A stretch of 64,000 nucleotides of DNA from Cirrosporium novae-zelandiae (Eukaryota): assembly GCA_026023565.1 (NCBI GenBank), contig JAPETS010000003.1:1364001-1428000 (forward strand), in the 5' to 3' direction. Of the stretch, positions 4,901-63,363 are shown piece after piece. The notes beneath the pieces are model-generated. The model ran no database searches. It was not told where the DNA came from and saw only the letters and a program-made list of their open reading frames with translations. Every line of letters starts with the position of its first letter. Position 1 is the first letter of the stretch. Both the position numbers and the translations under genes were made by a program.

Positions 4901-5188
4901 GCCTATTTGATAATTGCCAAGGCCACCATCCCTTCATCATGCTCTCATTTGTAACCGCAATTAACATTTTCCGCCCAAGGCACATAAAAACAGCTTAAAC
5001 CGGAGTGGAGAGTCCATAGATATAACAATCCCAAAACATATAGAGGTATCATGCATCCGTCATCCATCCATTTAGACGTCCGTCCTGCAGAGATGTCGCA
5101 AAGGGGTAAAAATAAACAGCAAATCAAGTGTAGCTACCAAAAGTTTAATCAAGAAACGAAGTCAAAGAATAAACTTCTATCGCACAAT

Positions 5189-8100: not shown

Positions 8101-8344
8101 CAGTGCTCGATTGCATTTAAGCCTAGTAATCAGTCAGCATCGAAAAATGAAAGCATAAAACAGCCCCAAATGATAAGATCGGACTTTAGAAAAGGGGATG
8201 AAAGATGGAACATGCGTACTTTCGATGCCGACAGGGACCACAAGAAAGTGGAACTCTGTTCCGCTTCCTCACAACTCTATGCTGAGCATCGGGGGAATGT
8301 GCTCCTACGCTAGAGGAAGTTGTTGAAGGTGGTGTAGGCGTCAT
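5189..8344 (-). CDS. Zn(II)2Cys6 fungal-specific transcription factor with C-terminal polyQ
   Basis: ATG 8344 MTPTPPSTT...RKRNRVPLSCGPCRHRK|LKCNRALPCENCVRRGEPSSCSY (binuclear cluster split by an intron). Middle homology region (ARLAMRMGYHRDP, EMRRRVW) lies in the 605-aa ORF. Last intron 5492-5594 joins ...NDLDW|GAWDTYVQ...QQQQ...GIGG*. Confidence 0.93.
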
Positions 8345-10446
8345 TTTGCTAAAAGTGGCGCTGAACGAAGAAAGGATATGATGAAGAGAGAAACGATGAC
8401 CAGAATGATAGCACGTTTAGTATCCACGGAGACCTCTAGATGTACAGAGGCGGATGGAAGCAATGGGCTGCTGAGGCAAAGATCGTTTGACCAATACCTG
8501 TCCAGAGAGGGAAGGAGTAAGCGATGCAATGTGCTGTTGTCCCCGAGCTGAGCCTACGAGAGCTAATCCCGTAAAATCAAAAGGTAGGGTCACCCAGTAT
8601 GATCTGCCTGGTCGAACGTAGATTGGCTCCTTTTGCCAGCCCTACTGCATATCCCCTTGCGGAGGATGCGCTATATGAAGCAACTCAACTGCTTTCTTCC
8701 TCTCCAAAATTACACCTAGATGTTCCCGCGTTTGAGGAGTCGCAACACTAAAAGGCGCTCCCCACCCCGCGACGGCAACCAAAGCTTATTGCCCTTGTTC
8801 AAGGCCGTTTGCTGTTGCTTCAAATGAACCAGCTGGCTAGTCCGATGGAATTTCAACTCCTTCGTCGCTCTCGGACGAGAGCTAAAGGATCGCGCAGCCT
8901 GGTTGAATTGTTTTCACACCGTTCTTCGTGCCACTAGTTGCCACCGATATATATTATCAACTTCAGCTGAGCAAACTCGACACACGTATGGAGAGAACCA
9001 AAGATCCGCTCAGCGAGTAGGGGTAGAACGGAAGCGTCTCTCTTAGATTATGTGAGGCAAATTTCGATAGTTAATGGATATGTGGTCAGTCTCTTGTCGA
9101 GTTTTCGCAGGCATATGCGATATGATGAAGCGCAAAAAGGACTCGATTTCGAAGCCGATCCTGGCAAGACCACAATGTCAGCATGCCGCCACGAACGAAA
9201 GCAAAAGCAAGCAGAAAACACAGCCTAGCGGAAGCACGAGGAGAGAACAAATTTACTTTGATTTCAAATTGGAAAGTTGGTCGCCGAATGTTCAGTTTCT
9301 TTCTTTGGTAATCCTTGAAGCACAAAATGCGTGCGCGGAGGTCGGTGATGGGACGACCGAATGTTCCGTTAATGAAGAATCAAGGACTTTGCAACTTGAC
9401 TATTTTCCTTCTAGACAATCACAACGGGATGGTTGAGTGGCGATCTATAGTCAATTACAGTTCATGAGGGGGGGTCTACTTGAGAGGCTATCGATGGAAT
9501 AATCAAAGACGCGGCTCAGAGGGTGCCTAGGCTTCCTTATGGACCATAAACGCCAATAAGAGCTCGGACAGAAGATTTAAGATGATTACAAAGGGAACCT
9601 AAATCAGTCAAGCGTGATAGGGCTTGGCTTTGACGATGAATTTGGCCTATAACCCCTTTCAAGTCCTACACTTTGGCGAATATCTATTGTAGGCCTCCTC
9701 GTTGATTTTCTTGTTGCCCTCGTGCAAGCCCGTCAGCTTTCAGCCATGGTTAGAGGCTCACTTGTTCCCCCCATCGGAGAAATCTAGTCGGATAACGGTC
9801 CGCAACGGCACGATTAATCAACCGGCCGAATTCCCAAGGCAGCAGGGCAACTTTCGCTCCTCGTTAAGTCCGTGTGCACCTCGACGTCATGGCGTTTGCT
9901 TCGCTGACTCGCTCAACTGATCAAACGCCCTAACTTTATTACAACCTCCTCGGTCCTTATGTACAGTACTGTACGACTCCAGTCCTGCCCGATATATCCA
10001 TTCCCCTAGCTCGGATGAATCTTAGACGCCATCGACATCACCCTCGGCACCGCTAGGATGATCGACTCAAGCATCAAAGTAAATTAGAGTGTTCCAGGGC
10101 TTATCAATATTTAGACTAAACCGAATTTATGTTTCTATTTTGCGCTAAATTTCAATTGAAGCTGCGATGGAAAGAAATTCTTATTGACGGCTACCTACAG
10201 AATCTTGCCTTTCTACTACGGAGTACAGACCTTCCTGGTTTCTTTTAGACCCTGGACCGGATGAGGAACAACAGTATAGAATTACAGAAGAAATAGCCAT
10301 CAAAGATGCGCTCTCCCATCCCCCAGACTAGTAATTTTGTGACTAGACGCTAGCAAAGGGCACATTAGATTTGACGGGCTAATGTGTTTATTAGTCAATG
10401 CTTTACTAGGCAAGTGACAGGTAATGCACATACTTAAGAGTGTTAT

Positions 10447-12941: not shown

Positions 12942-14614
12942 TTAATCACTTCTTGGCTTACCCGACCTTGGCCGTAATAAAGGCTCATTCACGGACTCAT
13001 CAATAGGGCAAGGGTCTTCGTCGTATTCGTGCACTTTCATATCAATGCCCACCCAGAATTTCTTGCCTCTCCACTCTAGACTCATACCTCCGAAGACCGC
13101 CCAAGCCCATATCGGGAAAGCCAGAATCTCTCGTCCCAACCAAGCTGCAAGCCATTGTTTAAATGGTCTTCTTGAATACGATCCTAGCGGACGAGCGAAG
13201 GAGGGTGTATACTGGTCGACTTCAACTGTTCGCGCGGAATGTAGTAGAATATAAAGCGTCCAGTCGAGGCATGCCCAAAGAGTTACACTCACGATCCAAA
13301 ATGATGAGAACGCAGTCCATGTCTGAGGAATACCAATACATTCATGGATCCATGGAAGAGTGGTAGCGGCAAAAGCGCCGTATAGAGAACAGAGAAAGCT
13401 TTCTGTTCCTGGTTCCACTAGAGTAGCAGCCATAACAGTAAACTTTCTGACACGAAGCCACCGCGCTCTTCGAGCGATGTATTCTTTCACACTCATGGAT
13501 GCCATAGGTTGCATAGCTATATTCCCAAAAACCAACGCGTGCTTACCATATACCTCCCCATCTTTCTCTGCGGCAAGTTTGTGTTTCCAGAGAGTGTCCC
13601 CAATAAGATGGTCCTCGCAGATATTGTCGGAGAAGGTGTCAATCCCAGGAGGCCGTACAGCATCTCCTGCAGTAAGCTCATCCAAGTGGGAGCGACGAAA
13701 CATAGTTGATTTGCCCACAATGCATGGTGCGACCAAGACCGTGTTTATAGCCGTATAGAATTTTGCATGCGACGAGGAGAAGAAAAGCTCCTCCAGCCTA
13801 CCACCGCCCATCCCTAGTATGCTAGAGAATCTGGATTGGTTTATATCATGAATTTGGAAGACATGACTAGCAGTACTTGAAGAAGCGACATGAATCTCTG
13901 GCCCATCCTTTTGATGAAGGAGTCCTCGCATCTCGGCAGAAAGCTCTTCACCATCCACATCTATGACCATCGGTAGTAAATGGACGAATTTGTATTTATA
14001 TCCAAGTCCTTCATGCGTGAAACCGCATAATTTATCTACCATCCGTCCTGCGACACCCTTTCCCACCCAGGCATTGCAGTCAAAGATCCAGATGATGTCA
14101 CTCTTGGCTTCATGGTACGCTCTGCTCATGTTTCGGATTTTTGGATTTGGTCCAAGTTTATTTGCACCTTGACCATCGTGCGCAAATTCATGGTCCTCTT
14201 CTTCAACGTATATTTTAGTTTCAAAGGCAGGGTGTCTCTCGGCGAGGCGCTTAAGGATGGGAAATGCGGGGTCATCATAAGAAGCAACACAGAAGCAAAT
14301 AGTCAGCTTATTGCGAGGATATGTTTGATGATAAGTTGCAGCCAGGCATTCGTAGAGGCGAGGCTCAAGGCCTTTAACTGGACGAATGACGGTGATGTGG
14401 GGAATCTCATAACTGGGGAGGGAGGGCGAGATGGGGGGCGGTGGTGTCTTCGAGTACCATCTTCTTCTAGAACGACGTTAGAAATGATCCTGAAGACAGC
14501 GCAAGGTATTGCGATCACGTACAGCTGGGTATATCCAATAATGACAACAATTGCGATGAAGATATACCATACCAGGCAGATGGTCGCAAGTAGCTGGACC
14601 CATTTGTAAATCAT
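12942..14614 (-). CDS. GCS1: Ceramide glucosyltransferase (glucosylceramide synthase, GT21)
   Basis: N-terminal TM ([31 protein letters not shown]), one intron ~14467-14522, then [40 protein letters not shown] and [11 protein letters not shown] motifs of the family. Confidence 0.93.
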
Positions 14615-45423: not shown

Positions 45424-47454
45424 CTTAATATAAGTGACGCGATTGAGTTTTGGTAAGGAGTTCCTGGAAGAATGAGCCCCGAGTTCAAGGATCCAGCTAA
45501 TATGAATGTACACAGGTAGATGATCACGCAGATCATGAATGGCAGAAAGATCAGTGCCAACACCCTGCTGATATAGAGACTATTGCTATCTAGGATGTGT
45601 GCTAGAGCTATGGTAGGTGGGGGGCTGAGAAATATGGAAGAATGTGGCAAAGATGAAGCTTACTTGTGGGTGAAATGACGTGGTTCGTGTCAGCTAGTAG
45701 TAACTGAACTGTTGGGTCGAGCCAGCGAGACCCCCTCGAGTCCGAGTGATATGCTGCGAGCCCTACCAGATACCGTTTGCCGAATTATAACCCGGTTTAT
45801 TGTTCAAGACACAAATCCTTTTATTTTCAGATCTTAGAGCATGACGGCTAGGACTTTGCCTTTGTAGCATCTAACTACCGTAAACACTTTCGCGAAAGTG
45901 TTGGATAGCAGTTGTGTCCCCAGCAACTCCCTGAGATAGAGACGGATTCAGCTTCAATTAAACCAGCAAAGACACGCTGTTATCGAATAGCATTCCTAGT
46001 GGGGCATAAAGGGTGTGGATTCCGCCAAATGATACGTTTGTTCAGATGGTTTGAAAGATGTATCTTGCTGGCCAAATACGTTGAAAAGCGTTGTCCTATT
46101 TTCCTTCAGGCAGTGACAGTCCGCTGAACAAGGCGCCTGGGTATATATATTCCCCTCTTATATTATCTCAATGTTCAAGAGACCAAGTGTATTCTTAGGT
46201 ACAATAATTGAGGGAAGTTATTTTATGAGTCCACCCCGTGATCTCTAGCTACAATACGATGGGAGGAGAGGCGAAGGATAGGGTTGGAAGGGTTTAAGAA
46301 AGACGGCGGCAGATGAAAATTATATAATAGTCTTTGTCAAATGCAGGTAGGGACGCTATCAGAAGAGACAATTTCTACCTTAGACAGAGTGGGTCAGTTC
46401 AAGGTCATAGGTAACTTTCGCAGCTTCGGACGATCCAAAGCTCCCAGAGACAAGAAAGACTCACTAATTGGAAGAAATCATTTATTCATTAATAGAAATT
46501 CATGAAATTCTGAACGAGTGAGGTCCATCTGCTCTTAGGTCCTTTGGTGGGCCTTTGGTCGAAGGTTGTTGATGTCTAAGGAAAGTTGATGAGAAGGCTA
46601 CAGAGCAAACAGCTTTTTGCAGATCAATTACTTGAAGGGGCTTCGTCCCGGTCCGAGTTGCTGACTCTTTTCGAGGTTCAGCCTTGTTGACCAATCGGTG
46701 GATATTTAGCTCCTTGTTCCTGGAGTAACCATATCCAGATTAGCCTCGGTCCAATAGTTTTGCCAAAAGTCAATGGGGCGACCTAACGACCTAGTATGGT
46801 ATGGTTGGTTCTTGGGTGGAATTCTTCAGGCTACCAGAGTCCATTTTATAACAAAATACCACCGTCATTCATTCTCGAGATAACTATTATGGTGAGAGAG
46901 AGTCCTCCTCCCCCCGTGACTATCAATCACATCACACCTATTCAACATCTATCTAGACATCCATCCATCCATCCATCCATCCATACATCATACATGCCTC
47001 CATTTTCAATTTTTCAAGGGAAAAAATCCAAAAAAAAAAACAATACCGATCACTATTAATGGTCGTCTTACCTATCAATCTCTTTCTTCTTTGTCAAACA
47101 AAGACCCGTCTTACTTTCTTTTTGATAGGATCCATGGAACCATCTGGATCCAAGGAAAGGAAGTAACAGACTGTTGGTTACTACCTATTTTCTCATTCCT
47201 TCCATAGTGGTCAGGCATAATTGCACAAAATCCCATTTTTCGGCTCAAGGCTTTGGCTGTGGGCCGACCGGAAACGGTGTGTCAAAGCTCTATTACCTAT
47301 TCTGCTGTCCAACAAAAGCCACCACCATCACCATTTTCTCATGTCTAAATAAATTCAAACTCTTCATACCCTTTAATGAGTTGACCCTCTTTTCATCTCA
47401 TCTCTCTCTTTGAATTCCAGCTGTTCATCTCATAATACTATAGCTGCTCTCACT

Positions 47455-48144
47455 ATGGCCGACGCCTATACTCCAATCCCCAATTGGCAATTCACACTCT
47501 ACATCATTGTCGCCATTTTCTCCTGCAGTGCAATCGCTGCGCTCCTCATTTGGCAGACCTACCGCTTCATCCTCTATATATTCTGCTGTCCATCCACCAC
47601 CCTAGAACACCAACCATCTGATCTCGACAGCCTCGATACCTTCCGCCAAGCTTATATGGCATACCTCTATCTCCAAGACCACCTCCACTCCATAAACCCC
47701 ATCAACGACCGCAGAAAAGTGAAAAATGACCTGGACAGAGCTTCCACTCTCCTCCACCTTCTTCGAGACATCTTTGTAGAAGGAACCTGCCTCAGCCTCA
47801 CCTTACTATCACCCTCCCAAAAGTCCGACCGTGAAGAATCTTATGACCAATTCCTCGCTCACGGCACCCTCCTCCCCATCCGCTCCTTTACTTTTCAATC
47901 CTACAGATCCGCCATCACCTCTACTATCTTTCAGCTCAACCAGATCATCTTCGATGACGTATTCCGCACGTTACAGATGAGACAAATATCACAATCCGGA
48001 TGGTGGAAGCTGCGGAGCGACAATCTAAATGCTCCAGTTGAGCAACTAACTGAGGATATGATGGAGGTGCAGCCTGTCTGGAGACTCCGGAAGGCTGTGG
48101 ACGTGCAGGAGGATGCATTAATCATGGTTGATTACAAATGTTAG
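47455..48144 (+). CDS. Hypothetical protein with N-terminal transmembrane segment
   Basis: 229-aa ATG ORF with coding-like codon bias and the hydrophobic stretch FTLYIIVAIFSCSAIAALLIW. No family recognised. Confidence 0.6.
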   Translation: MADAYTPIPNWQFTLYIIVAIFSCSAIAALLIWQTYRFILYIFCCPSTTLEHQPSDLDSLDTFRQAYMAYLYLQDHLHSINPINDRRKVKNDLDRASTLLHLLRDIFVEGTCLSLTLLSPSQKSDREESYDQFLAHGTLLPIRSFTFQSYRSAITSTIFQLNQIIFDDVFRTLQMRQISQSGWWKLRSDNLNAPVEQLTEDMMEVQPVWRLRKAVDVQEDALIMVDYKC

Positions 48145-48983
48145 TTTGGAGGTTCAAGGGTCTAAAGTTTATGACATAATCAAATAACTTAGAGGGGTTA
48201 ATTCGTGACGAATCATGACCGTCAATGCTATTTTATGGCACACACCTATGCTCCTAAGTATATGCTATTATTGTGCTTCAACGCGTGTGACTCAGAGGAT
48301 GGGCTGTTAGAATTCCATAATTATTGGCTTTCACGCTTGCTCTTTAACTTCAAACACCGAAGTGGGAGGAGAGAGAGATAATTCGGTGTGGGAGGACCTT
48401 TACTGGTGTGCGCGCTCGTATGGTGGTGTTGTGTCATGTCTTATCCTGCCATATCCTGTTATGCCAGGCGTTTGAAGCGCTACTAGCAACGATATTAAAC
48501 GAATCAAAATGAAATATTAATTCATGTCTAATAAACCCAAAGCCAGCGAAATTTCTTGTTTATTTATTTTTGAAACATTTGCCAAGCAATGTTTTTGTTT
48601 TTTATTTTCCAATTATTTCCATTGAATTATATATATATAATAAAGAAGTGAACTCATAGGTCCAATGGTGGAGCGGACTTGGATCTCCTCCCTCCCCCCC
48701 TCCCCACTTCCCGATACCCGGCTAGCTGTGGATAGTAATGGTATACATCCATCTGAATCTCTAAGAGGAGTCTATCTACCTGCTCTATCCTATTCGGTAT
48801 ATAACGCCTATATTTAAAGAAAGAAGTGCCTTTTCCTTTCTCGGACGTCTTTTTGGACGGGTTCTCTGTTTTCCCTTTTTCCCTTTTTGCCCTTGCTCCC
48901 GTTTGCTTTTAGGAGGGGCCTTTTATTTCTTCTTTTTCATTTTCTCTTTGATATCTTTCGAAGTCAAGAAGGCAAGAGAAAAC

Positions 48984-50461
48984 TTAGTAGAGGTTATATT
49001 CTACACAAGGAGCGACAATCTTCTCGCCCTCGGGAACCGAGTTCGCGGCCTTTATGGCTGGATCGTCTGACAGGACGTCGTCCATCACTTTCTCCAGAAG
49101 TGAGATGGCTTCCTCGGAGATTTCTGTCTAGAGGTTAGAGAATACATCCCTTGAAGTTTTGGGGACAGGAGGCGAGATCCTGATTAGATTTAGATCGGGA
49201 ACTTACGTCGATGCACCACCAGCCTTCCCCCCATAACCTTAATCCCCCAGCGCTTCGCAATTCCGATGAATTGATGCACCGTCACATCTGCGGCCGCTAA
49301 ATCAAACCACACCATATTCGTCTCGGTCGGCTTTCCCAACTTCCCGCCCTTGGCTACCCAAGTCGCTGCTATTCTCTTTGCCTTTTTGTGTGATTCAACG
49401 AGATGGCCGCCCTCGCCATTGGGGCCATTTCCGAAGCCTTCGTCGACGGCTACGCGCGCCGCAGCACTGATTATGCCGGCTTGGCGGATTCCGCCGCCAA
49501 TGGACTTGCGGATCCAGCATGCATGCTTGATGAAAGATTTGCTTCCTACTAGGATGCTGCCAATGGGCGCGCATAAGCCCTTGCTGAAACACAATTGGAC
49601 CGAGTCAAAGCACTGTGCAAAGTCAGTAAGACTGCCTGCGCCGGCGGCCACGACTTCCCAGAGCCGCGCACCGTCTAGATGCATTTTGATGCCGTTGGCG
49701 CGGGCAAATTCGGAAATTCGCCGCGTTTCTTCAAGGGGCATGATGACACCGCCGAGGGTGTTCTCGAGGGAGATGACGCGCGTGGGACAGCTGTGAATGT
49801 CGTCGGAGATGACGACGCTGCGCTTGATGTCTTCGAGCGTAAGATATTTGCCATTGGAAGGGACAACACCCTTGACGAGGGCGGCAGAGAGGGTAGCCAC
49901 GCCGCCGGCCTCCCATTCTAGGATATGGCCACGATAGTCGCATAAGACAGCATGAGGTGGCTGCATTAGGTGCGAGCGGAGAGCAACTTGGTTGCCCATT
50001 GTGCCAGACATCATAAGGAGGGCATCTTCGTGGCCAGTTAGGGAAGCAATATGGGACTGGAGGGAATTAGTGGTTGAGTCTTCTCTATACACATCATCCA
50101 TGAGGGTGGTATGAATGATGGCTTCGAGCATGGAAGCTGTGGGGGTTGTTATCGTGTCGCCTTCACAGAGTTGTTAGATACAATAATTTGACAAGAGTGC
50201 TCAATTGAGAAGGATAGTATATAGGCCCAAGTCGGCGAGGTTGTCTTGAGCGCTAAGCGTAGCTCTAAGCTTCCAGATAGCTTGGCCATCAATTGAAGAT
50301 ATTGAACCACATAGCTCTATAGCGGGACTACTTCTGAAAATGGGAATATCCTTACTTCTAAAATCAAAAGCAGCTGGTCCAGGAGTCTGCCAATTGTTTA
50401 CTTTCCCATTGGTACCGTTGATTCCATTCGCCACCTTTTCTGATGTATCGATTGACCCCAT
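48984..50461 (-). CDS. GLY1: Low-specificity L-threonine aldolase (PLP-dependent)
   Basis: FDFRS|DTITTPT, MDDVYRED, SGTMGNQ, SLENT, HLDGARLW, CFSKGLCAPIGS (PLP Lys), RLVVHRQ|ISEEAI. Two introns. Confidence 0.95.
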
Positions 50462-51561
50462 TGTTGAAGTTGACAAGTTGATTGCAGGGTAGGGGCTCTG
50501 GCCGCACACAAACGTAGTAAAAGGAAGGCTTATTTATAATGGCTCACAGTTCAAATATGAGGCTTCGATTCTTAAGAGGATGGATCCTATACAAAATAAC
50601 TAGAGGTTAGAGATAGCTACTAACGAGCAAGGAGTGAAAGAAGCGTTAGTCCAAAATATATATGAGCATACCGGAAAATAAGAAACAGACTTATGAACAG
50701 AAAAAGTGTAGAAAAGTAAGCAATAGGTAGATAGAAAGAAAGAAGGCTATTAGCATTGTTCGAGGCCCTCAGGCCGCTTAATAAAGGCGTCTTCATGAAG
50801 AGTCATAGTCATCCATTGCTTCAGTTGTGGTGTGTCATACCGGAGCAATCGGAGCGGAGCTTGGAAAGACACTTGATGGCCATGATGGGAAAAGATGGCG
50901 GCTGTTGAGAAAGAATTTTAGCCTTGGTCTTCTTTGAAAGCTTTCATTTGTTACCTTTATCGATAAGGGTTTAGCGTTGCTTCAAAATAAGACACCAACA
51001 TACTACAATTCTCTAATTATATAAGCCTCTCCACCTGGAAGCGGTTGCAAGTGGCTCGGGACCCTATTAAAGTAACCAAACCAAGGGGCAAGGTGGATAA
51101 TCCAAGGATTTCAGAGATATGAAGTCTTTGAAGGACGGTGAAGACCTTGACTCAACTACAATACCCCAGTATAGTACAATATACTAACTATGAACTAGTC
51201 TACCACTTACGCAGCGAACACATCTGTCTTATTTGTAAGTGCGCGTTTAAGTTAGTCAACAAACATGCATGTTCATTTCATTTGGAAGCGCGTCAGTTGG
51301 CGTCAATGGCGTCAACTGTTAGCTGTTAACCGTTAACCGTTAATCTCACCACGTGGTCACTAAGCCAAGAAGGGACTCCCTGGAAACCTCCGAAGGGACC
51401 CCACGGACCTCTTCCCAAATTAGGATTAGATGAACAAGCAATCCTGGCTGATTCTTCGGACTTTTGCTCGGACTTGACCAAACACCATCTCAATTTCTTA
51501 TTTTCAATTGTCTAACAGCACCTCAACGTCTTGTTAGCTCCATCTATTCATTTCCTACAAG

Positions 51562-54500
51562 ATGGACGAGCCTAATGTCTACCACATCGCTGGAAGTTTA
51601 CCAAATTTCTCTCCCACAGCCCAAGATGGTCAGATGACATTGCTCTGTCCCAAAGATGGAACTTTTCTTGGCCGTTATGTAAACCGTTGGGAAAAGGTCT
51701 CCAACTCTTACTTTAGACCATTAACTCCCGAAAGAAGCAGAAAAGATTTGGGCTTGAATGCGTCTAAGCAAATTGTCGGTGCTGCTGAACACTCTCAGTT
51801 GGCTGGCTGGTAAGTCAAGCCCCATCACCTCCGATTCCTCTGACGGTAATTATATTTATACCGATATATTCCATATCTGTATATACTGGGATATATTGTT
51901 GTCACTGCCTCCATTATTTTCTTGCCAAGTTTCAATCCTCGAATTTCTTTAGCTGTTGACTGTAAGACACTTGCTGGTAATAATAATTATTAACACTTCA
52001 AAATGTGCTTCTAATTCTGCCCCTGTCTACATTTCTTCCTGTTGACTTCATGGAAACCTAATATCTTATGTGAACTTCCAGTATGATATTAAATGTTAAC
52101 TAACGCCTATTTTAGCAAAATACAAGAACTGTCTTGCAAGAAGTGCAACTTGTCGCTGGGAGTCAAGTGCATTGGAGCTCCTGACATTAAGCACCATTAC
52201 AAGTAAGCCCAACACCGTGTCTCTTTCATTTCTTCAATATAGATATTTATATTCTCATCTTCTTTATCTAACATTGGTTCCTGTTGCCTACCTTTATCAA
52301 CGAAGCTCGCAATTTTTGACCATCTACAAAAGAGACCTGCTAAGACTTGTCTAGGGGTTGCCGATTTCTCAAACTATATAAGATTGAATGTAAAGGTACA
52401 AAAGGAGGCCAGCCTGTCGAACCAATCATCGAGCAGGACTCCTTTGCAAACCTCGCACCAAAAGGGAGAGGGTCTTCTAATTTAGATAACCTAGGCAATA
52501 CCTCCCATGCCCAGCCAAGCCTATTTCAAAGGCCTGGTGTTCCTATTAGAAATGAGGATGTCGTGGAAGTGGAACGTCAGAGCTCCGGGCAGCTTCAGGA
52601 CAAAACGACTCCCACAGAGCCTCCGTCCTCAAATTCGTCCGTGGTTTCGGCAATAATTGATACTCAAAATAAAAAGATCACCAGAATATCCGATGCTATG
52701 GACAGGCTTCAGGCCGAAATGAATATCGTTCAGAATTCACTTAGAGATCTCCAAAACGAAGTACTGGAACAGAAAGTGCAACATGATCATAATAGAGGCG
52801 ACAGTGGTATAGAAAAACGCCTTGACCTGCTTACGGGAGTGGTTAATAGATTGGCTAAGAATATCAACGATATCGCACCAATCAAAAGAAGAGTCAACAC
52901 TCTAGAGACATCCCACTTAGCTCTATTATCAACCCCAGATCGAGAGTTTCCTCCAATACAGCAGCCGCACAGGACCCGTACTTTTGGTGAGCAACAGATC
53001 GCCGATAGACTTTTTGGGACTCCAGTGGGCAGTGAGCCCTCGACTATTCTGCGACCCCGAGCCAATTCATTCGCTCGTAGCCATCAAAGTACGGTCAAGC
53101 CTTCGAGTAATTTTCTTGATCTATCATCCAGCTTCTCCAACTCTCAGACGGAACACCAATCCCTATACCCACCAAGAATCTTGCCTCAAACTAGCAATGA
53201 TGCTATATTGCAACGCTCTAGGCAATTATACGATTCGTCCTCATTCCAGGTCCAGGAAGGTTCTACACAAGCAACCCCTCTTCAGATTAGCGATAGTTCC
53301 GTTTTTCGATTATCCCATATCAACCAGGGCTCTCATGAGAACCATGAAAACTTCGCTCGTGATCAGATGACAAATAAAGAAAACAGACATGACCAATTGT
53401 CGCGAAGTGGTCTTGATGCCTCGTCAGCTCGAGATCGACACCAGTTAATCCGTAATTCACATGCAGGATGCTTCTTGGACTATTTGAATGGAGAATCGAA
53501 TAGCCGCAACGGTGCTATGGTTACTGAGTCTCATCAATTAGTACCTGTCACTACTAATACATTACGCTCGAACTCAAGTCACAATGGAGACATTCCGACA
53601 TCAGTAGCAGAAACCGTGATAGAAAATGAGAGCGCATGTCCTTCGATAGAAAGGAAAAACCTCTCTGCACCCCCTGTTTCGGATGATCAGCGGATAGAGA
53701 ACAGTTCTGCTGACAAGCTTATTCCAACCATTGAAAGATCCCCGCAACATAAACCAAGTATGATAGCGTCAATTGCGAATCAAAAATCATTGACTCTCCA
53801 AAGCTTGACTAATCTCTATTCTGAGCTGAACGGCAATGGAAAGCGGGAAAATCCAACCTTTTCGTCGACCCCAGAAGTGGATATCCCTGCACAACAAGGT
53901 CTGGATCAGTATTACGATCTAAAGGGTTCTCATCCGGAACTTTCAGAACATACCGATGATCCTCGTGGAAGTGGATCTTATATCTCAAGTGAGGGAGAGC
54001 ATAGACACCAACCCACGAGAGAAAATGTCAGCCCAAAAGATAATGGTAGGAATCATAGCCGATCAAAGCGTATCAGGCTACATGGTCCTACTGATGCTTC
54101 CAATGGGACACCGCAAAACGGAAGTAACGAAAACGAAACCCATACCTCAGACATGGACAAAAGCCTACAAAAAGAGGAATCACTAGGAGAAACGACAGCT
54201 CCGATACCAACTCAACGAATCCCTATCCGAGATAGCGAAGCACAACCCTCAGGTAGAGGTAGAAGGTCCACCCTCTCATCAACAGATAGACCATCGATTA
54301 GTATACCAGCCAGGAGGAAATCCGGGCGATCTGCATCAATGGGACCAACACCACACCGAAACATCGCCACCGGTGCAGCCCCAAGCAAGAAACCCAGCAC
54401 CTCCCGCCGCGGAAAAGCAAAATCCTTACACAAAGCAGTCACTGAGCAGGGATCTCCATCCTCTACTAGACCTGATGAGCAGCTCCTCGCAGATCTCGCA

Positions 54501-54659
54501 AATATTGCAACTCTGTTGCCTCAAGGTAAAAACACATTAGGTGATGATTCTGCAACAAAAGAAGGAAAGTCGTCATTGAATGGACAGGCGCGGAGCAATC
54601 AAACCCCCAGACGTGTAGGCCGACCCCCCAAAAAACGTCTCAGGCAGTCTTATGGGTGA
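51562..54659 (+). CDS. Mis18/Yippee-like Zn-binding domain, coiled coil, long disordered region and C-terminal AT-hook
   Basis: Introns 51809-52116 and 52203-52354 give LLCPKDGTFLGRYVNRW...SQLAGCKIQELSCKKCNLSLGVKCIGAP...KGCRFLKL, then the 770-aa ORF with a heptad region and RRVGRPPKK. Confidence 0.7.
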
Positions 54660-55143
54660 AGAAAGAGGCGGATGCTAATTAAGCCGTACTTGTACGAAAC
54701 AAATCAACTATAGCTGCATTTGATCACCAAGGCCTCGAAGGTAGATTAGAGGACGGATCGGCGTCTTAAAAGCTTCCACACTAACCAGACGAAACACTAA
54801 TTTGTGGAATACTGAGTTTGTATATCGGTATTGTCATTTGATTCGAGTACAAGGGCAGAAAGAAAAAGGGATAAAATGCAGATTGATGGTCGAGAATGAT
54901 GGAAGAAAAGTCTTGGGAGAGGTAATGGACAAAGCGATGGTAGAGGCATAATTCTGAGTGGTCCTAGGAAAAGAGGTCAATATTAAATAACTATGTATTC
55001 AATAGTGACACGTTAACAATACATCAAGGGGAAGAAAAAAAGTACCTTAGTATATATAATAATTGATAGATTTTATGACATTTGCCACTAAGGTGTTGGT
55101 GGGAACTGTGGTACATGTGTGGGTCAAGGATCGGGGATAAGGG

Positions 55144-55168
55144 TTAGTAACCACCGACTATGACGTCA
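55144..55168. promoter_or_regulatory. Adjacent Yap1-type (TTAGTAA) and CRE/Atf1-type (TGACGTCA) sites upstream of pirin
   Basis: TTAGTAA at 55144-55150 and TGACGTCA at 55161-55168, about 290 bp upstream of the ATG. Confidence 0.5.
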
Positions 55169-55455
55169 TTGTTCTGGCTGGTCTTGAGTCTATTTTGCTT
55201 ACGAAAACTTTTATCAGCAAAGATTGATTTTCCTTAATTGAACTGGACTGAAAAGGTACTTTCTAATCATTAAGTAAACACCAATAATCACAGACCTATA
55301 TAGAATTATCACTCTTGTCAAAGAATTGTCATCCTCCTATAAGCAAACTTATCCTTCCTCAATTGCTAACTAATCTTTCTTTCATCGTGGATTGGTCCAA
55401 AAGAATATTCCAGATCTTTTAATTCCTACTATATAAAGCAGGTTTGCGATCTTTC

Positions 55456-56592
55456 ATGAAGACTGTATCATTATTTTTTCCCATCAGCTCCATCCTCGCA
55501 GTCTTCATTGCAGTTTTCGCATACTTCAACAGCAACAGCGCATCTTTTCTGTCACAACAGATTCCTCTAGCCCTTGAATTGGCAGCTCAGAAGATACATA
55601 AAACCCTCCATCAAACAGCAGAAACGACAACCTCCAATAATCTTTTCCCAGACATATCTCTCCACACAACCTCCGAAATGTCCATTCCTCGCACTATTCG
55701 CAAGGCTTTTCTTGCCATTGAGCAATCCGAAGGTGCTGGCGCCCGCGTTCGCCGCTCGATTGGCACCGCCTCCCTGCGCAATCTCTCTCCTTTCCTTATG
55801 CTCGACCACTTCACGATTTCTCCTGGCGCTGGTTTCCCTGACCATCCCCATCGCGGCCAAGAAACAATCACATATCTCCTCAAGGGTGCCGTAGACCATG
55901 AAGATTTCGCTGGGAACAAAGGTACTATTGAGACGGGGGATTTACAATTCATGACCGCTGGAAAAGGAATAATGCACGCAGAAATGCCACGGCAGAATCC
56001 AGATGGAAGTCCCAACGTTGGATTGCAACTATGGGTTGATTTGCCTGAGAAGCTCAAAAGCTGCGAACCGCGATACCGTGACCTACGCGCGAAAGAAATC
56101 CCATCAGTAACTCTCGATGAGGACCGCGTCACCGTTAAAGTAATTTCAGGACAAAGCCATGGCGTTGATAGTGTTCAAGAATTAGCCTACACACCGGTCT
56201 GGCTTCTTGACATTACGATCAAACCTGGTGGGTCAATCACACAGGAACTCCCTAAAAACTGGACCGCTTTCGCATATACCCTTTCTGGGTCTGTTAACTT
56301 TGGCACTGGAACGGGAGCTAAAGCCGTGGGACCTTTTACCAACGTTGTGTTCAATACCGAAGGGGACGTCGTGAATGCCAGTGTTCCCAAGTCATCTGAG
56401 AAGGATGGAGAAGCCAGATTTGTCCTCGTGGCTGGAACTCCACTAGATCAGAAGGTGGTGCAGTATGGACCATTTGTGGTGAATACTCAGGAGCAGGTAT
56501 ATCAAGCTATGATGGATTATCAGACCCATTCCAACGGATTCGAGAGGGCCAAAGGGTGGAGAAGTGAGATTGGGAAGACTATGGCGCATTGA
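55456..56592 (+). CDS. Pirin (bicupin, Fe-binding) with hydrophobic N-terminal extension
   Basis: SPFLMLDHF, GFPDHPHRGQETITY, QFMTAGKGIMHAEMP, GLQLWVDLP, QYGPFV. A second in-frame ATG at 55678 starts the canonical domain. Confidence 0.94.
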   Translation: MKTVSLFFPISSILAVFIAVFAYFNSNSASFLSQQIPLALELAAQKIHKTLHQTAETTTSNNLFPDISLHTTSEMSIPRTIRKAFLAIEQSEGAGARVRRSIGTASLRNLSPFLMLDHFTISPGAGFPDHPHRGQETITYLLKGAVDHEDFAGNKGTIETGDLQFMTAGKGIMHAEMPRQNPDGSPNVGLQLWVDLPEKLKSCEPRYRDLRAKEIPSVTLDEDRVTVKVISGQSHGVDSVQELAYTPVWLLDITIKPGGSITQELPKNWTAFAYTLSGSVNFGTGTGAKAVGPFTNVVFNTEGDVVNASVPKSSEKDGEARFVLVAGTPLDQKVVQYGPFVVNTQEQVYQAMMDYQTHSNGFERAKGWRSEIGKTMAH

Positions 56593-57310
56593 TAAAGGGT
56601 GACATGGATGATTTTTTCTGATATGGGAATTTAGTTTATATAGCACAGGATTTGGAAGGGATTGTTATATCGCGAGGTTGATCGAGGGGAACACTACTAA
56701 ATGTGTTTCTTTAAAACATATATACCCATTTATATGTATATTAATGAAATGATACGGCAATTGATATTATGGTTACTTGAAGTTTTGTTCTGTAGTCGAT
56801 TTTTAGCTATGGGAGATCTCCTCAACTTGGTGGGAGTAGCATTTCGAGAATTGGGATTGGTATTTGCCGGCACAGAAAGGTCTGTGTCGGCGTCCATAAC
56901 ATCAGAAAAAGTGGAAAATAAGTCTTTATGGGATTAATCTGGGATTCTGGGAAGCTTTTGCGGATATCTCCGGCCAAGCTTTAACTCGGTGCCTGAGATC
57001 GCCTGAAATCACCGTCGGCACAATTTTGGTTGGCCCCGTCTTATCGTAGCCCACGATAGGGAATTATTATTATCATCCTCATCATCCTTCACCCTGTACT
57101 CGAGTACAGTACTATCTACTATCCACTAATTATCTACGATTGCCTAAGGCTGAGATAACATTCCGTTTCTTGTGATACTCATCAGTTCACCCCCCACCAA
57201 TCCATATCCTAGGAATATGGCCGAAACCCCTTTGGGCACCATGCCTTATTATATGCCATTGCAGCCATTCCAATCGAATGGCAGGAAGAAATACAACTAA
57301 ATATACAGTC

Positions 57311-59552
57311 ATGGATCAACTTTTAATGCTTCCCTCTTGGGACCCTGAATTATTGCTGGCGATTGTTTTGGCCATAATAACAGCTTTCCTCTATTACCCT
57401 TCGAAGCAGGTCTCTTCTTTTTATGCTGGAAATGCCAAAACTGTTGCTCAATCTTCATCAACGGCTGCTGGAGGAAGTAGGGACATTGCCGCTGCATTGA
57501 AAAAGTCTGGCAAGAAGATTGTTTTCTTCTATGGATCTCAGACTGGAACAGCTGAGCAGTATGCCAATCGGCTAGCCAAGGATGTAAAGGCACACTATGG
57601 GCTCTCGTCCTTAGTTTGTGATCCCCAAGAGTATGCTCTAGCTATCATATTATTATCATTCTCGGGCTTCCTAACCATGTAGCAGGTACGATTTCAACGT
57701 TCTCGACCGAATACCTTCCGATGCCTTGGTCGTATTCATTGTAGCAACTTATGGCGAAGGTGACCCTACAGATAATGCAATTGGCCTTTTAGATTTTCTT
57801 AAAGCGGACACTCTTGACCTCTCTAACGGGGGAAACTCCTTGTCGAACTTACACTACGCCGTATTTGGGCTTGGAAATAGGACATATGAGCACTTCTGTG
57901 CCGTTGGGCGTTGTATAGATGAACGACTTGCACATTTTGGTGCTACAAGAGTTGGAACGAGAGGCGAGGGGGATGATGACAATGTATTGGAAGAAGACTA
58001 TCTTGCATGGAAGGATTCAATGTGGAATGCCGTTGAGAAGACTTTTGGATGGCAGGATGGAGCAGGGACAGTAGTCCCTGATTTTTATGTCCTGGAACTG
58101 CAGAAGAAAAGCGACACCAAGGACGTGTATCTCGGAGAACTTTGCCAACGAGCTTTGACTGGGGTTCGAGGTGTTCATGATGCACGAAATCCATACATTT
58201 CTCCCATTTTCAAGACAAAGGAACTATTCCAAGATGGAGACCGAAACTGTATTTTCGCCGAGTTCGATATCTCTAGCTCCGGGTTGAAATACCAAACTGG
58301 AGATCATGTTGGGATCTGGCCTATGAACCCTGAGCGCGAAGTAGAGTGCCTCTTGCGAATCCTTGGGCTTGAGCCAAAACGCAATGCAGCTATTGATGTT
58401 CAGTCTCTCGATCTGACCCTTGCAAAAGTCCCGTTCCCTGTTCCTACAACATACGAGTGCGCTCTCCGGTACTATCTTGACATTTCGCAGCAAGCTTCCC
58501 GCCAGATAATCCACTCCCTCGCCAAGTATGCACCAACCTCACAAGCCCGTTCAGCGGTCGAAAAGTTTGGCACTGACAAGGAATACTACCTTTCCGCTGT
58601 TGCACAGAATGGGCTCACCCTCTCCCAGGTCCTCATTACTGCAGCCGGGGACCCCCTGAACGCAGATCCAACGCTGCATACTACTAAATACACGGAGTGG
58701 CCTATTCCTTTTGCATACATTATCTCTAGTATCCCCCGTCTTCAACCGCGCTACTACTCTATCTCATCTTCACCACGTCTGTTCCCTAATTCCATCCATA
58801 TTACCGCCATTGTGGTAAAACAGAAGCTTCATCGCACGGCTTCTAATCATTTCTACGGCCTCGCGACAAATTACTTACTAAATCTCAAAAATGCTTCTCT
58901 AGCTAAGGACATTACATCGAACGAAAAGACGCCCAAAGATGAAAGCGCCCCTGTACACAAACTCGAAGGTCCAAGGGGAAAATATAAGTCCTCTATGATA
59001 TATTCAGTCCCAGTTCACACCAGAGTATCAACCTTCCGGTTACCAACTAGTGTCAAAATTCCTATCGTCATGATCGGCCCTGGCACCGGTGTTGCACCCT
59101 TCCGAGCATTCGTTCAAGATCGTGTTGCGCTCGCTCGTAGGGCAAAGGCAAGACATGGGCCTGCTGCCCTCGCGGATTGGGGAGACATGCATCTCTTTTA
59201 CAGCTGTAGACGTGCGGACCATGACTTTCTGTACAAAGACGAATGGTCTTTATATGCCGCAGAATTGGATGGAAAATTGAAGCTCCATGTTGGATTCTCA
59301 CGAGAAGCTGGGCAGAAGAAAATCTACGTTCAAAATCTACTAGAGCAAGAGAGAGAAGATGTAGCAGAAGTGCTTGGGAAGAAAAAGAGGGGATACGTCT
59401 ACATTTGTGGAGATGCGAAAGGGATGGCTAAGGACGTTGAAAGTACACTGGGAAAAATTCTTGCCGGGGCAAAGGGAAAAGAAGGAGATAATGGAGTTGG
59501 TGAGGTGAAGGGGTTAAAAGACCAGAAGAGGATGATTCTAGATGTTTGGTAA
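57311..59552 (+). CDS. cpr: NADPH-cytochrome P450 reductase
   Basis: N-terminal anchor, FMN motifs YGSQTGTAE, ATYGEGDPTDNA and FGLGNRTY, FAD motif RYYSISSS, NADPH motifs MIGPGTGVAPFR and YICGDA, ends LDVW*. Intron 57631-57685. Alternative ATG at 57278. Confidence 0.96.
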
Positions 59553-59797
59553 ATATCTGAATCCTAGGTAGAGAGATAGTGAGATGCAGTCACACGTAAA
59601 ATACACGCTAAGGCTCAATTAGTTAAGACGAGAGTGAAAATAAGGATAATTGTTAATTGGGAGTTAGTCACCTAGCCATCACATATCCGCCCAGTGTTTG
59701 GCCTTGGAGACAAAACCATCGTGACTTGCTTCCACGTTCATTGAAGACCAGAAACCAACAACCAGTCCACTTCTTTAACATCATCATTATCGTGGCC

Positions 59798-61085
59798 ATG
59801 GCCAGACTTCCTGCAGATATTCTCAAGTCGGAGAGAGCCTCTCTCATTGCCTTGAGCTCTACATGCACTTTTTATCGCGCCGTTGTTGCACCTCTAGTGT
59901 TTACGTCTCTAGTATTAGAGAACACCAAACGCAGCGCAGATTCACTACTATCTATAATAGCCCAAGGAAAATATGCTGGAGTTGTACAAAAGCTGGCATT
60001 CAAAGGCTATATCGTAGGTAACAACAGTAAGTGACATGATAGTTCCTGAATCTCATCATTACCTTTGAAGCCCAATTCTGAACAAGATCACAGATAACAA
60101 GGATGATGGTTGTGTAATTTCCGAGGCCCTCAGCGAGGAACTTTTCCCATCGGAAGTGGACCGTCTCCTTTCTAACCTCTCTGTATTCCCTTGCTTAAGC
60201 TAGCTCTCTATTCAAATCTACTCAAGTGATCACTACCAGCCTATGCGTGTTTATGCTGGAGATGTTAAGAAAGCCATCAAGCAAGAAAAGAAGATACTTT
60301 GGCTCCACCTCGCCACAAAGGCTCTAGCTGCCATCTGTCGCGGCGGTGACAAGAACTGCTGGTTCAAAAACCTCCAGCTGCTGGGAATGACCCCCAGGAT
60401 AATTTCTCCTTTCCTTGAGGAAAACTTTCATCGCATGCTCCGCTCGCTTACCGCCTTCACCTTGAAATTGAGTGATAGAGAAGACGGCACATTCAGAGAG
60501 AGAAATTACGCTGCAGACCATTTCGCCTACCGCATGTCGAAATACTTTTTCGACCATTTGGAGAACTTAACTAACTTCAAGCTGTCTGCATCAGCAGATC
60601 CAATCTGCTATGTCCAATATTACTATGGCCTCAGACCCCAACATATGCCGCACCTCCGAAACATTAAATTAACCTACATACTCCTCTGTTCAAACCTAGC
60701 CAGATTCCTAGGAGCACATTCGCAGACCCTAGAAACCATATCCCTACTCAACTGCTTCTGTAGGGTGGCCCCATCTATATTTGACCTAGCCTGGGATACC
60801 CTGTTTAAAACCGTGCGCAACAGCAATCCCCAGAACTTGCGCAAGCTTGAGGTTGTAAACCCATCCAACAGGCAGCTAGAGCAACTGTTATCTAAGGTGT
60901 GCTCGAAGCACGGCCTGCCGCATTCCATGCACTTCAACTACAAATACCCCGGTCATGTTGACAGAGACATCGATGACCACCCGCGGATCGAAGAGAGTTT
61001 TGTGGTTAGGGATGATCACCATGAGTATGAAGCATTGATGGACTTTATCGAAGCGAACCGTGCCAGAGCGGATGCCCGTAAGTAG
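59798..61085 (+). pseudogene. F-box/LRR-like gene with one in-frame TAG
   Basis: F-box-like LIALSSTCTFYRAVVAPLVFTSLVL. Phase-compatible intron 60027-60093. FPSEVDRLLSNLSVFPCLS*LSIQI with TAG at 60201-60203, then open to 61085 with LRR-like LxxLxL segments. The start codon is uncertain. Confidence 0.65.
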
Positions 61086-61619
61086 CCAGCCAAAGAGACG
61101 TGTGTACCACCTCACCCACTTCCTAAGCATTGTGTACCTAAAAACGCCCCCCCTCTCTCTATTTTACGTACTTACAAAACTTACAATATCATCACGAAGG
61201 GAAAAGATTAGAGGATTTTACCCCCTCCCCGAACAGGCTTTATTCTCTAGATATTCTATAGACAAATAAATCGAAGCATTTCCTTCTTCTTCCCCAGTCC
61301 CCCCAGGGCGAAACCCCATATAAAAACTTGAAAACATTATTAATCCCTCCCCCTCCCTTCCCTTCCTTTATATACTTCTAGTAACATCAAATATCTACTC
61401 CACGGTTTTGATTTTCATGTGCTAAACAATTTCTTATTCTTTTTTGTTTTGTTTGTTTTTTAATTTCTCACCCTCTCCTCCCCCTCGAAAGGGTTTTTTT
61501 TCTTTTTTTTAGTTGCGATTCAGCAGTAAAAGAGATAAATATATCTACCCAATTACGACCATAAAAAAATTGATTTTTCAAATGAAACATCTTCCCCCAA
61601 GCCTAACATTAAATTAACT

Positions 61620-63363
61620 TCAATTTACAGAACCCTCATTCACCCCATCATTTACAGGAGGCTTGATCCCATTTGTTTTTATTATGTGGTTCGCCTTCTT
61701 CTTCAAATCAGTCATGACCGGCAACCCCGCCGCCGCCAAATCCGCATTGATTTCATCTAAATGATCTAGGAAATGTGGCTGCACGTCGTCCCACTGTCCG
61801 GGGGGGTTCGGATGCAGGTTCCCGCTGCGGGTGAGAGCGTACTGGGTGATGAGGAACGGGACGCTGATATGAAACATGAAGGCGATGGTACCTTCGCAGA
61901 CGCGCTCGGGCTTCAGCTCGCGCGTGGTGGCGAGCTTCCAGGTCTGGTAGGTCTCGCCGTGGGGCATGAAGCTGGCTTCGTAGCTGAGCCCTCCGGGCTC
62001 CAGCACGTGGGAGCTGCCGCCGTACTTACCATAGATGAGGCCCATGACCTCGGTAGACATGTTGCGGTGGTAATAGGGGGGCCGGAAGGAGTTGGAGGTG
62101 GCGTTCCATTTCGGGGTGAAGATCAGGAAGTCGGAGATGGAGACGCCGGGGGTTTTGGATTTGGCAGTTAGCACGCAGTAGACTGTGGGGTCGCTCTGGT
62201 CTTTTTCGACGGTGGCCGTGTTGATGAATTTTTCCATGGCGTATTTGTAGGGCGCGTAGTTGCCGTGCCAGGCGACGACGTCGAAGGGCGTGTGGTTTTG
62301 GTGGCAGGTGTGCAGCGTGCCGGCTAGTTTGTAGGTGATTTGCCAGGGGCTGGGGCTGGCGGGGTCGATGTCGAAACTTGCGAGGGGGATTTCGAAGTCC
62401 CGTGGGAGCGCCATGCCGTTGGAGCCGATGGGGCCTAGTTCCGGTAGCTCGTAGTGCGAGCCGTAGATTTCTTGGATGTAGCCTCGGACGGGGGCGTTGT
62501 CTGGCAGGGTGACCTTCCACCGCATGCCGGCTTGGAGGATGGCGAGCTCGCCAGGCCGCACCCGCATCCGTCCGAATTCTGTTTGGATGTCTAGTCGGCC
62601 TTCCTGAGGAAGGATAAGCATGTCGCCGTCGTTGCTGCAGAAGGCCTTGTTTCCCATGGATGCGTTCGCCGCATATATGTGTACGGCTAGGCCTTCTTTC
62701 CCCGTTGGGTCGCCTTGGCCACCTACGGTTTTGAGGCCTTGGACGAAGTCGACGGATTCCGAGTCCGGGGGCATTGGGAAGGGGTCCCATGCAAGCTGTG
62801 CGGGAATGTATTCGACATTTTGGTTCATGGGGGAGAAGCAGGATTCCAGCTTGGGATTCTGTTAGATGGGTTCTATCTTCGGGTTTCTGTTTGCTGGCGA
62901 GGACTTACGTCCGGGTTGGGAGTAGCTTTTGTGATTTCATGGTGTGCTACCGAGGGTCGAATTCGGTAGAACCAGCTAGGGAGAGATGGTCAGCATTTTG
63001 GTAGGGACAACAGTAATTGTGAACTTACGCATGCTGTAAGGTTGCACGGCTAGAGACGAAGGAAGATCCGTTCAACTTTTTGATGGGCGCATTAGCGATA
63101 TATCTCCCACAACATAGAAAATTGATTAGTAGGCCCACCTGTTCTGAATATAAGTCATATTTACATTTTTGTGGTGTATTTTGAGCTCTAGGAAGGATTC
63201 CAGGACTGTTCAATAAAAGTAAGCATTCATTTTTCTTTTCTCTCTGGCTATGAACTTACATGGCTTCCGATGCGAATCGATTCCCAAAACCGACTTGATA
63301 GCTATATGGATCTTCTGGAGTTGGAGTTGTGGCAAAAGCACACTTAGCAGTATACCCAAGCAT
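61620..63363 (-). CDS. Homogentisate 1,2-dioxygenase-like protein (divergent HmgA paralog)
   Basis: DPYSYQVGFGNRFASEAI|PGILPRAQNTPQKC...|WFYRIRPSVAH, LPELGPIGSNGMA, FDVVAWHGNYAPYKY, Fe ligands in RPPYYHRNMSTE and MPHG. Four introns. Confidence 0.92.

Follow-up and report, generated by a model that had tools for sequence, protein, structure and literature searches.

A basidiomycete-type NADPH-cytochrome P450 reductase gene in the ascomycete Cirrosporium novae-zelandiae, a candidate for transfer between phyla

NADPH-cytochrome P450 reductase (CPR) is the obligatory redox partner of the microsomal cytochromes P450, and it is commonly regarded as a housekeeping gene that passes down vertically. 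The Pezizomycotina can carry more than one copy. CPR2 is a Pezizomycotina paralog which is clustered with CYP630 and which, according to Novak et al. (2015, PMC4368105), arose by a duplication within the Pezizomycotina; the same work and a second one (PMC5307856) show that an extra CPR of this kind may serve a clustered P450 as its dedicated partner. Here, we describe a CPR gene from Cirrosporium novae-zelandiae (Xylobotryomycetes, Pezizomycotina) that differs from CPR2 in origin. It lies in a stretch of 64,000 nucleotides (GenBank assembly GCA_026023565.1, contig JAPETS010000003.1, positions 1,364,001 to 1,428,000 of the forward strand), to which we refer as the window. Its ancestry appears, with good support, to be basidiomycete (Pucciniomycotina, related to the Microbotryomycetes), against the species tree.

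How does this gene compare with the closest described systems? With the CPRs of Basidiomycota, and of the Microbotryomycetes in particular, it has in common the three domains, the length of ~710-730 aa and the N-terminal anchor. The CPRs of Meredithblackwellia, Phenoliferia, Microbotryum and Rhodotorula share with it 57-60% identity, two inserts of 9 and 12 residues, the terminal LDVW motif and the intron 107.2 (intron positions are given as codon.phase in the numbering of the NCBI protein P0003, see below). Unlike these proteins, the window CPR is found in a Pezizomycotina genome, has one intron instead of four to five, sits on a longer branch, lacks the final Ser and carries a Ser in place of the near-invariant G613. 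The Pezizomycotina CPR1 (the main reductase, CprA-type) and CPR2 belong to the same family and have the same domain order and presumably the same chemistry; moreover, relatives of the window CPR also adjoin a P450 in a cluster-like setting, as CPR2 does. In contrast to CPR1 and CPR2, to which it is 37-43% identical, the window CPR falls outside the Ascomycota clade, lacks the intron 629.0 and has the two basidiomycete-type inserts. Furthermore, CPR2 is adjacent to CYP630 according to PMC4368105, whereas no P450 Pfam match is found near the window CPR. The solved CPRs of Candida tropicalis (6t1t), S. cerevisiae (2bf4), rat (1amo) and human (3qe2) are homologous to it from end to end, with E-values from 3.9e-133 (6t1t, the best match) to about 1e-120; these are relatives by sequence.

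Judged by its reading frame and motifs, the gene is an intact, membrane-anchored diflavin NADPH-cytochrome P450 reductase (EC 1.6.2.4), and as an enzyme it is an unremarkable representative of a known family. Splicing of its two exons (see the table) gives a product without any difference from the 728-aa protein P0003, which bears at NCBI the label 'MAG: NADPH-cytochrome P450 reductase [Cirrosporium novae-zelandiae]' (MAG, metagenome-assembled genome) and originates from a contig of 1,462,218 bp. The single intron, straddled by the segment GLSSLVCDPQEYDF, has a CTAAC branch-point-like site 10 nt before the acceptor, and the stop codon is a TAA at 59550-59552. Pfam finds Flavodoxin_1 (PF00258), FAD_binding_1 (PF00667) and NAD_binding_1 (PF00175), all of which exceed their cutoffs; for exon 2, the E-values are 1.8e-56 for FAD_binding_1 and 1.3e-15 for NAD_binding_1. 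Kyte-Doolittle windows of 19 residues that score above 1.6 start solely at residues 4-14, around LLLAIVLAIITAFLYY, in the membrane anchor. The conserved cofactor and catalytic motifs are YGSQTGTAE at residue 74, ATYGEGDPTDN at 127, LGNRTYEHF at 169, RYYSISSS at 462, GPGTGVAPFR at 571, CGDAKGM at 681 and LDVW at 725.

In a full-length alignment of CPRs (A1 in the following), S465 does not vary, and C681, D726 and W728 hardly do; we take these Ser, Cys, Asp and Trp residues to be catalytic, in line with the roles described for the rat enzyme. There are two departures from the usual sequence. Codon 613 (59148-59150) encodes Ser (FYSCRR), while Gly (FYGCRR) is found in 14 of the 15 aligned CPRs, and the C-terminus (59547-59552) stops at the Trp, while a terminal Ser is present in nearly all other basidiomycete-type rows. 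By homology to the solved CPRs, the predicted enzyme would take electrons from NADPH and hand them via FAD and FMN to microsomal P450s.

We compared exon 2 of the CPR gene with ~5.8 billion protein clusters, and the counts that follow refer to the 120 matches listed. The top non-self matches, at 57-60% identity, are metagenome proteins and proteins from Microbotryomycetes, namely Meredithblackwellia, Phenoliferia, Microbotryum, Rhodotorula, Sporobolomyces and Rhodosporidiobolus. Agaricomycetes come next (51-54%). Named ascomycetes account for 3 of the 120 matches, that is, the CPR itself, Leptodophora sp. (57%) and Cadophora sp. DSE1049 (53%). In a search of representatives at 50% identity, the CPR's own representative is from Mixia (55%), followed by Naematelia (47%), and the ascomycete CPR representatives from Penicillium, Capronia, Fusarium, Diutina and S. 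pombe lie at 40-43%. Over the full length, the CPR is 53-64% identical to the other members of the small clade that is described below, 57-58% to Microbotryomycetes, 53% to Mixia and Gloeophyllum, and 37-39% to Penicillium, Capronia and S. pombe.

The gene had been singled out earlier in a sequence-only reading, which quoted seven peptide segments; all of them are in the CPR translation. It had also claimed that the protein is close to basidiomycete CPRs, with Phanerochaete as the example. The first part of this claim stands, and the second does not, since the Agaricomycetes are at ~52% and the Microbotryomycetes at 57-60%. The insert and the C-terminus, which had been named as basidiomycete-like characters, are borne out by alignment A1. 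Every basidiomycete-type row carries the 9-residue insert in ARRAKARHGPAALADWG and another of 12 residues, PLNADPTLHTTKYTEW, and the Penicillium, Capronia and S. pombe rows have neither; the C-terminus reads R-x-x-LDVW in the window CPR as opposed to RYQED[VA]W in the two Pezizomycotina rows.

A first tree, calculated with FastTree from 229 rows, gave the same picture as the later maximum likelihood (ML) tree. The latter comprises 43 rows and 714 columns and was calculated under LG+C20+F+G4 with posterior mean site frequencies (PMSF); support is given as ultrafast bootstrap/SH-aLRT (the Shimodaira-Hasegawa-like approximate likelihood ratio test). It contains 31 named rows (among them the outgroup of three early-diverging fungi, Massospora, Basidiobolus and Dimargaris), the unnamed clade members and another three unnamed rows with a position among the basidiomycetes; to save computing time, the other Agaricomycete and unnamed rows were not included. 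In this tree Cirrosporium, Leptodophora, Cadophora and the metagenome proteins P0004, P0017, P0030 and P0404 form a clade of seven (100/99), in which Cirrosporium branches first and the Helotiales genes stand together. The clade is sister to the Microbotryomycetes plus P0005 (99/95), and it lies inside the Pucciniomycotina (100/96) and, with these, inside the Basidiomycota (100/100). The terminal branch of the Cirrosporium CPR (0.54) and the stem of the clade (0.24) compare with roughly 0.1-0.25 for the Microbotryomycete tips.

The nine named ascomycete CPRs, on the other hand, form one clade (100/98), and the Cirrosporium CPR is outside of it. Forcing the seven-gene clade together with these nine was rejected by the approximately unbiased (AU) test (log-likelihood difference, dlnL, 90.0, p 2.3e-95); a nesting within the ascomycete CPRs, which would have spoken for ordinary descent, is thus not what we find. 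Forcing the 24 basidiomycete rows together without the seven-gene clade was rejected as well (dlnL 23.1, p 0.0022). When metagenome loci were added in a quick search of 55 rows, the locus L010 fell inside the CPR clade (100), L012 grouped with Phenoliferia (98), L004 and L016 with Sporobolomyces (82), and L078, L038, L045 and L043 were inside the ascomycete clade (99).

Next to the tree, the intron positions are informative. We modelled the CPR genes in 22 of 80 metagenome loci and in the window with a custom spliced aligner, which gave back the annotated CPR intron of the window exactly; the models as such are approximate. The intron 107.2 is found in four of four clade genes and in three of three Microbotryomycete-type genes, but in none of the seven other basidiomycete-type and none of the nine ascomycete-type genes. 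The intron 575.0 occurs in two of the four clade genes, in eight of the ten other basidiomycete-type genes and in none of the nine ascomycete-type ones, whereas 629.0 is found in eight of the nine ascomycete-type genes and in 0 of the 14 other modelled CPR genes. Taken together, the clade genes have the introns 107.2, 575.0 and 67.0 in common with basidiomycete-type genes. As a separate observation, the loci L024 and L030 carry basidiomycete-type CPR genes without introns, both on large contigs; these make up a long-branched pair (stem 0.64) in a group on the Agaricomycotina side.

A cross-phylum origin of the CPR is indicated because three independent types of characters agree, namely the sequence tree, the indels and the intron positions. 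The sequence-only reading had put forward a basidiomycete-type CPR in an ascomycete genome as a candidate for horizontal transfer, and the similarity ranking, the ML tree, the two AU tests, the introns and the indels all uphold this. We consider it quite probable that an old transfer at the DNA level took the gene from a Microbotryomycete-related lineage into the Pezizomycotina, that rare retention or secondary movement followed, and that the gene serves there as an extra reductase. The result would be a rare clade of ascomycete-borne CPRs (Cirrosporium, Leptodophora, Cadophora and five metagenome genes) descended from a Pucciniomycotina CPR. We found no neighbour that is common to the basidiomycete-type loci: tblastx of L001 and of the window from 44 to 64 kb against ten loci (L012, L016, L004, L003, L020, L023, L024, L030, L078 and L038) gave 0 matches outside the CPR. 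The CPR therefore appears to have crossed alone. The transfer would have to be old enough for full compositional amelioration, for the loss of most introns and for ~40% divergence of the protein; afterwards, the CPR would have survived in very few lineages or moved a second time between ascomycetes.

That the gene entered several times, or spread from one ascomycete to another after a single entry, is a variant of this history which we regard as possible but rather unlikely. The distribution of the clade is indeed extremely patchy. A profile of the clade added one further, unnamed member among 120 matches listed, and the metagenome scan added L010; these counts are lower bounds. Cluster-like gene blocks are known to move between fungi, and such a block surrounds the CPR in L001, L007 and L010. 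Upstream of the CPR, the three loci have in common an Abhydrolase_3 gene and, on the opposite strand, a gene that matches Fungal_trans weakly (E 4.5e-4, below the cutoff). L001 and L010 also share a P450 with 70-86% identity in segments, which is on different sides of the CPR. The Cirrosporium window is without this block of hydrolase, regulator and P450: neither the Abhydrolase_3 gene nor the putative regulator was found in it, and its sole matches to the clade loci are the CPR and a gene for homogentisate 1,2-dioxygenase (HGD), in L001 alone. Against repeated entry stands the monophyly of the clade (100/99) with its long stem of 0.24, according to which entry from the basidiomycetes happened once. 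As far as names are known, the branching within the clade is not contrary to the species tree either.

Far less probable, in our view, is an ancient paralog, that is, a duplication of the CPR before the split of Ascomycota and Basidiomycota with the loss of this copy in almost all ascomycetes; the sequence-only reading had offered an old paralog lost in most ascomycetes as its second option. Fungal CPR paralogs do exist (CPR1 and CPR2, PMC4368105), and a clade that spans two classes of Pezizomycotina, with Cirrosporium first and the Helotiales together, is compatible with vertical descent. However, such a paralog predicts a sister relation between the clade and the whole of the basidiomycete CPRs, which is the arrangement rejected by the second AU test above; in its Dikarya-wide form the idea is thus discarded (p 0.002). 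The clade nests instead in the Pucciniomycotina beside the Microbotryomycetes, its intron 107.2 is shared with Microbotryomycete-type genes alone, and with three named ascomycetes among the 120 matches listed from a database that draws on public genomes, very many independent losses would be needed.

The last alternative is that a basidiomycete yeast in the sample contributed the gene and that assembly or binning put it together with ascomycete DNA. It has in its favour that the record is labelled as a MAG, that the DNA is found in one run alone, which is probably the source, and that the upstream flanks received no taxonomic placement by search. On the other hand, the CPR is no more than ~60% identical to any basidiomycete protein among the matches listed, and it has one short ascomycete-style intron against the four to five introns of Microbotryomycete-type genes. 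We were not able to find any compositional anomaly of the CPR relative to the neighbouring window genes. Exon 2 has a GC content of 0.473 and a GC content at third codon positions (GC3) of 0.446, inside the range of the 11 other window open reading frames (ORFs; GC3 0.39-0.75), and the correlation of its relative synonymous codon usage (RSCU) with the pooled other ORFs is 0.52, the highest value, tied with that of the pirin gene. Being host-like, this composition lends no support to a transfer, and it dates the event no further than 'not recent'.

A second assembly (Logan contigs from the one run) covers the CPR region with 0 differences; no RNA run was listed as containing the sequence. One contig of 14,396 nt (depth 360.9) runs unbroken from ~46,959 to 61,341 and spans the threonine aldolase, pirin, the CPR and the downstream ORFs; the next one (14,711 nt, depth 362.1) begins at 61,468. 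The stretch between them (61342-61467) is CT/T-rich, low-complexity intergenic DNA, and since the depth is equal on both sides, we do not take the break as a sign of misassembly. Finally, the same CPR type is found on contigs of 3.7 Mb and 0.34 Mb from isolates of the Helotiales, Leptodophora and Cadophora, the Leptodophora copy again near an HGD. A chimera or contaminant, which the sequence-only reading had named as one way in which it could fail, is therefore unlikely given the host composition, the ascomycete-type HGD downstream on the same 1.46-Mb contig, the bridging contig and the Helotiales isolates, and we give an artefact hardly any credence.

Several points weigh against the history that we prefer, an old transfer from a Microbotryomycete-related donor. 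The Logan contigs are an independent assembly of the same probable source data, the Cirrosporium record is a MAG, and the placement of the flanks by sequence search comes from the HGD alone, pirin being placed coarsely. Membership of the seven-gene clade was read off the first FastTree tree ahead of the AU tests, which qualifies their p-values. The donor is weakly resolved, as the clade and the sampled Microbotryomycetes are sisters, the former not nested in the latter, and the trees are without named Pucciniomycetes, Cystobasidiomycetes, Agaricostilbomycetes and Ustilaginomycotina. For nesting within the Pucciniomycotina, the AU test in which 14 Pucciniomycotina rows were forced together without the seven-gene clade gave a marginal result (dlnL 11.3, p 0.036) for a group that was named after the tree had been seen. 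The ascomycete CPR rows are long-branched (0.86-1.8), and some long-branch effect is possible, which likewise qualifies the p-values; the use of a site-heterogeneous model speaks against such an effect, as do the introns and indels. The linkage of CPR and HGD may be coincidental, because the window HGD and those of Leptodophora and L001 fall into different subclades and are not sisters; we do not use it as evidence of shared ancestry. Lastly, the CPR is probably an extra (accessory) reductase for particular P450s, but this status is argued by analogy to CPR2, which can be the dedicated partner of a clustered P450, and no p450 Pfam match was found among the 39 window ORFs scanned.

What could the role of such a reductase be? 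L010, which has the clade type, and L078, which has the ascomycete type, lie on two contigs of Mb scale that agree in their assembly prefix and are alike in GC, and this pairing suggests that carriers of the clade CPR may keep their native CPR. The CPR is near an HGD in three cases, which points to the catabolism of aromatic compounds: in the window, in L001 (3.8 kb downstream of the CPR, L001:16148-17425) and in Leptodophora, where the CPR is six locus tags away (between ACEPPN_014318 and ACEPPN_014324) from an HGD with 93% identity to the HGD of Cadophora sp. M221. The CPR may possibly act in aromatic catabolism that feeds the cleavage of homogentisate. Going further, it might have been recruited as the dedicated electron donor of a mobile catabolic cluster (P450, alpha/beta hydrolase, Zn-cluster regulator) that is recurrently linked to HGD and was spread patchily by secondary transfer among unrelated Pezizomycotina, with Cirrosporium keeping a CPR-HGD remnant; we offer this tentatively and think it unlikely. 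A bolder variant would have the native CPR of Cirrosporium replaced by the xenolog.

The table lists the features of the window and of the related loci. The window genes other than those discussed are ordinary fungal ones (ATP synthase alpha, CAF-1, Rpb7, Ofd1, an FHA kinase, threonine aldolase and pirin). For pirin, which shares a Logan contig with the CPR, as well as for the HGD, the ESM Atlas cluster labels are mostly Ascomycota, which is coarse evidence. The two ORFs downstream of the CPR gave no Pfam match at E<=1e-5 and, at E<=0.05, a lone below-cutoff match to RBD (E 0.036, for 60204-61082); no homolog of them was found in the clade loci L001, L007 and L010.

The window HGD, 2 kb downstream of the CPR, matches M1834_005186, which lies on the same 1,462,218-bp contig, at 100% identity. 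Its named top matches are mostly Pezizomycotina (66-72%), with Plicaturopsis and Fistulina also at 71-72%, and in a FastTree tree it belongs to a clade of 45 rows (support 97), among which 21 are named Ascomycota and none is a named basidiomycete. Its main exon is a compositional outlier in the window (GC 0.581, GC3 0.751, against GC3 of 0.39-0.62 in the 11 other ORFs), its RSCU correlation with the pooled other ORFs is -0.01, and the intergenic DNA on both sides is normal (0.39-0.45). This could be due to a strong codon bias from high expression or to a more recent acquisition. The HGDs of L001 and Leptodophora form a tight group of four with Cadophora sp. M221 (L001:16148-17425 and the proteins P0355, P0297 and P0308), which joins the Agaricomycete HGD clade and not the main ascomycete one, though weakly (FastTree 78); possibly this is another cross-phylum anomaly, or else it is an artefact.

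Table. Features of the window and of the related CPR loci; window positions count from the first letter of the window, and introns are given as codon.phase.
Feature	Position	Strand	Remarks
Pirin, upstream neighbour	55423..56592	+	stop-to-stop ORF; likely start Met 55678; Pfam Pirin and Pirin_C
CPR gene, two exons	57311..59552	+	single 55-nt intron; 728-aa NADPH-cytochrome P450 reductase
CPR exon 1	57311..57630	+	ATG at 57311; N-terminal membrane anchor, first FMN-binding motif; ends with 2 bases of codon 107
CPR intron	57631..57685	+	55 nt; GTATGC donor, CAG acceptor; phase 2 in codon 107
CPR exon 2	57686..59552	+	rest of FMN domain, connecting and FAD domains, NADPH domain, C-terminal LDVW
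Two ORFs downstream of CPR, possibly one gene	59657-60034, 60204-61085	+	125 and 293 aa; no assigned Pfam family
HGD, main exon	61620..62861	-	Pfam HgmA_N and HgmA_C
Cluster-like block, L001	L001:5063-9243 and 13066-14202		
Cluster-like block, L007	L007:1298-4887		
Cluster-like block, L010	L010:90-1073 and 4817-8922		
CPR introns, window (clade)	107.2 alone		
CPR introns, L001 (clade)	81.2, 107.2, 676.1		
CPR introns, L007 (clade)	67.0, 81.2, 107.2, 575.0		
CPR introns, L010 (clade)	81.2, 107.2, 575.0		81.2 junction looks poorly aligned
CPR introns, L004 and L016 (Microbotryomycete-type)	67.0, 107.2, 169.1, 575.0, 681.2		
CPR introns, L012 (Microbotryomycete-type)	107.2, 169.1, 575.0, 683.0		
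CPR introns, L023, L025 and L028 (Agaricomycete-type)	67.0, 257.1, 575.0		
CPR introns, ascomycete-type loci	629.0 alone in eight of nine		none in the ninth

In the literature that we searched, we found no report of an inter-phylum transfer of a CPR, with subscription-only work (such as a 2008 survey of the evolution of fungal CPRs) being outside the search. The listed papers that name Cirrosporium novae-zelandiae are taxonomic. If our reading is correct, the CPR described here would be a third kind of ascomycete CPR, next to CPR1 and CPR2, that is derived from another phylum. It would provide a clean and testable case of the transfer of a core redox component from basidiomycetes to ascomycetes, unusually well documented as an event between phyla. 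It may also be seen as a natural experiment in the pairing of a foreign reductase with the P450s of its host, and as such it would bear on azole and xenobiotic metabolism and on P450 engineering.

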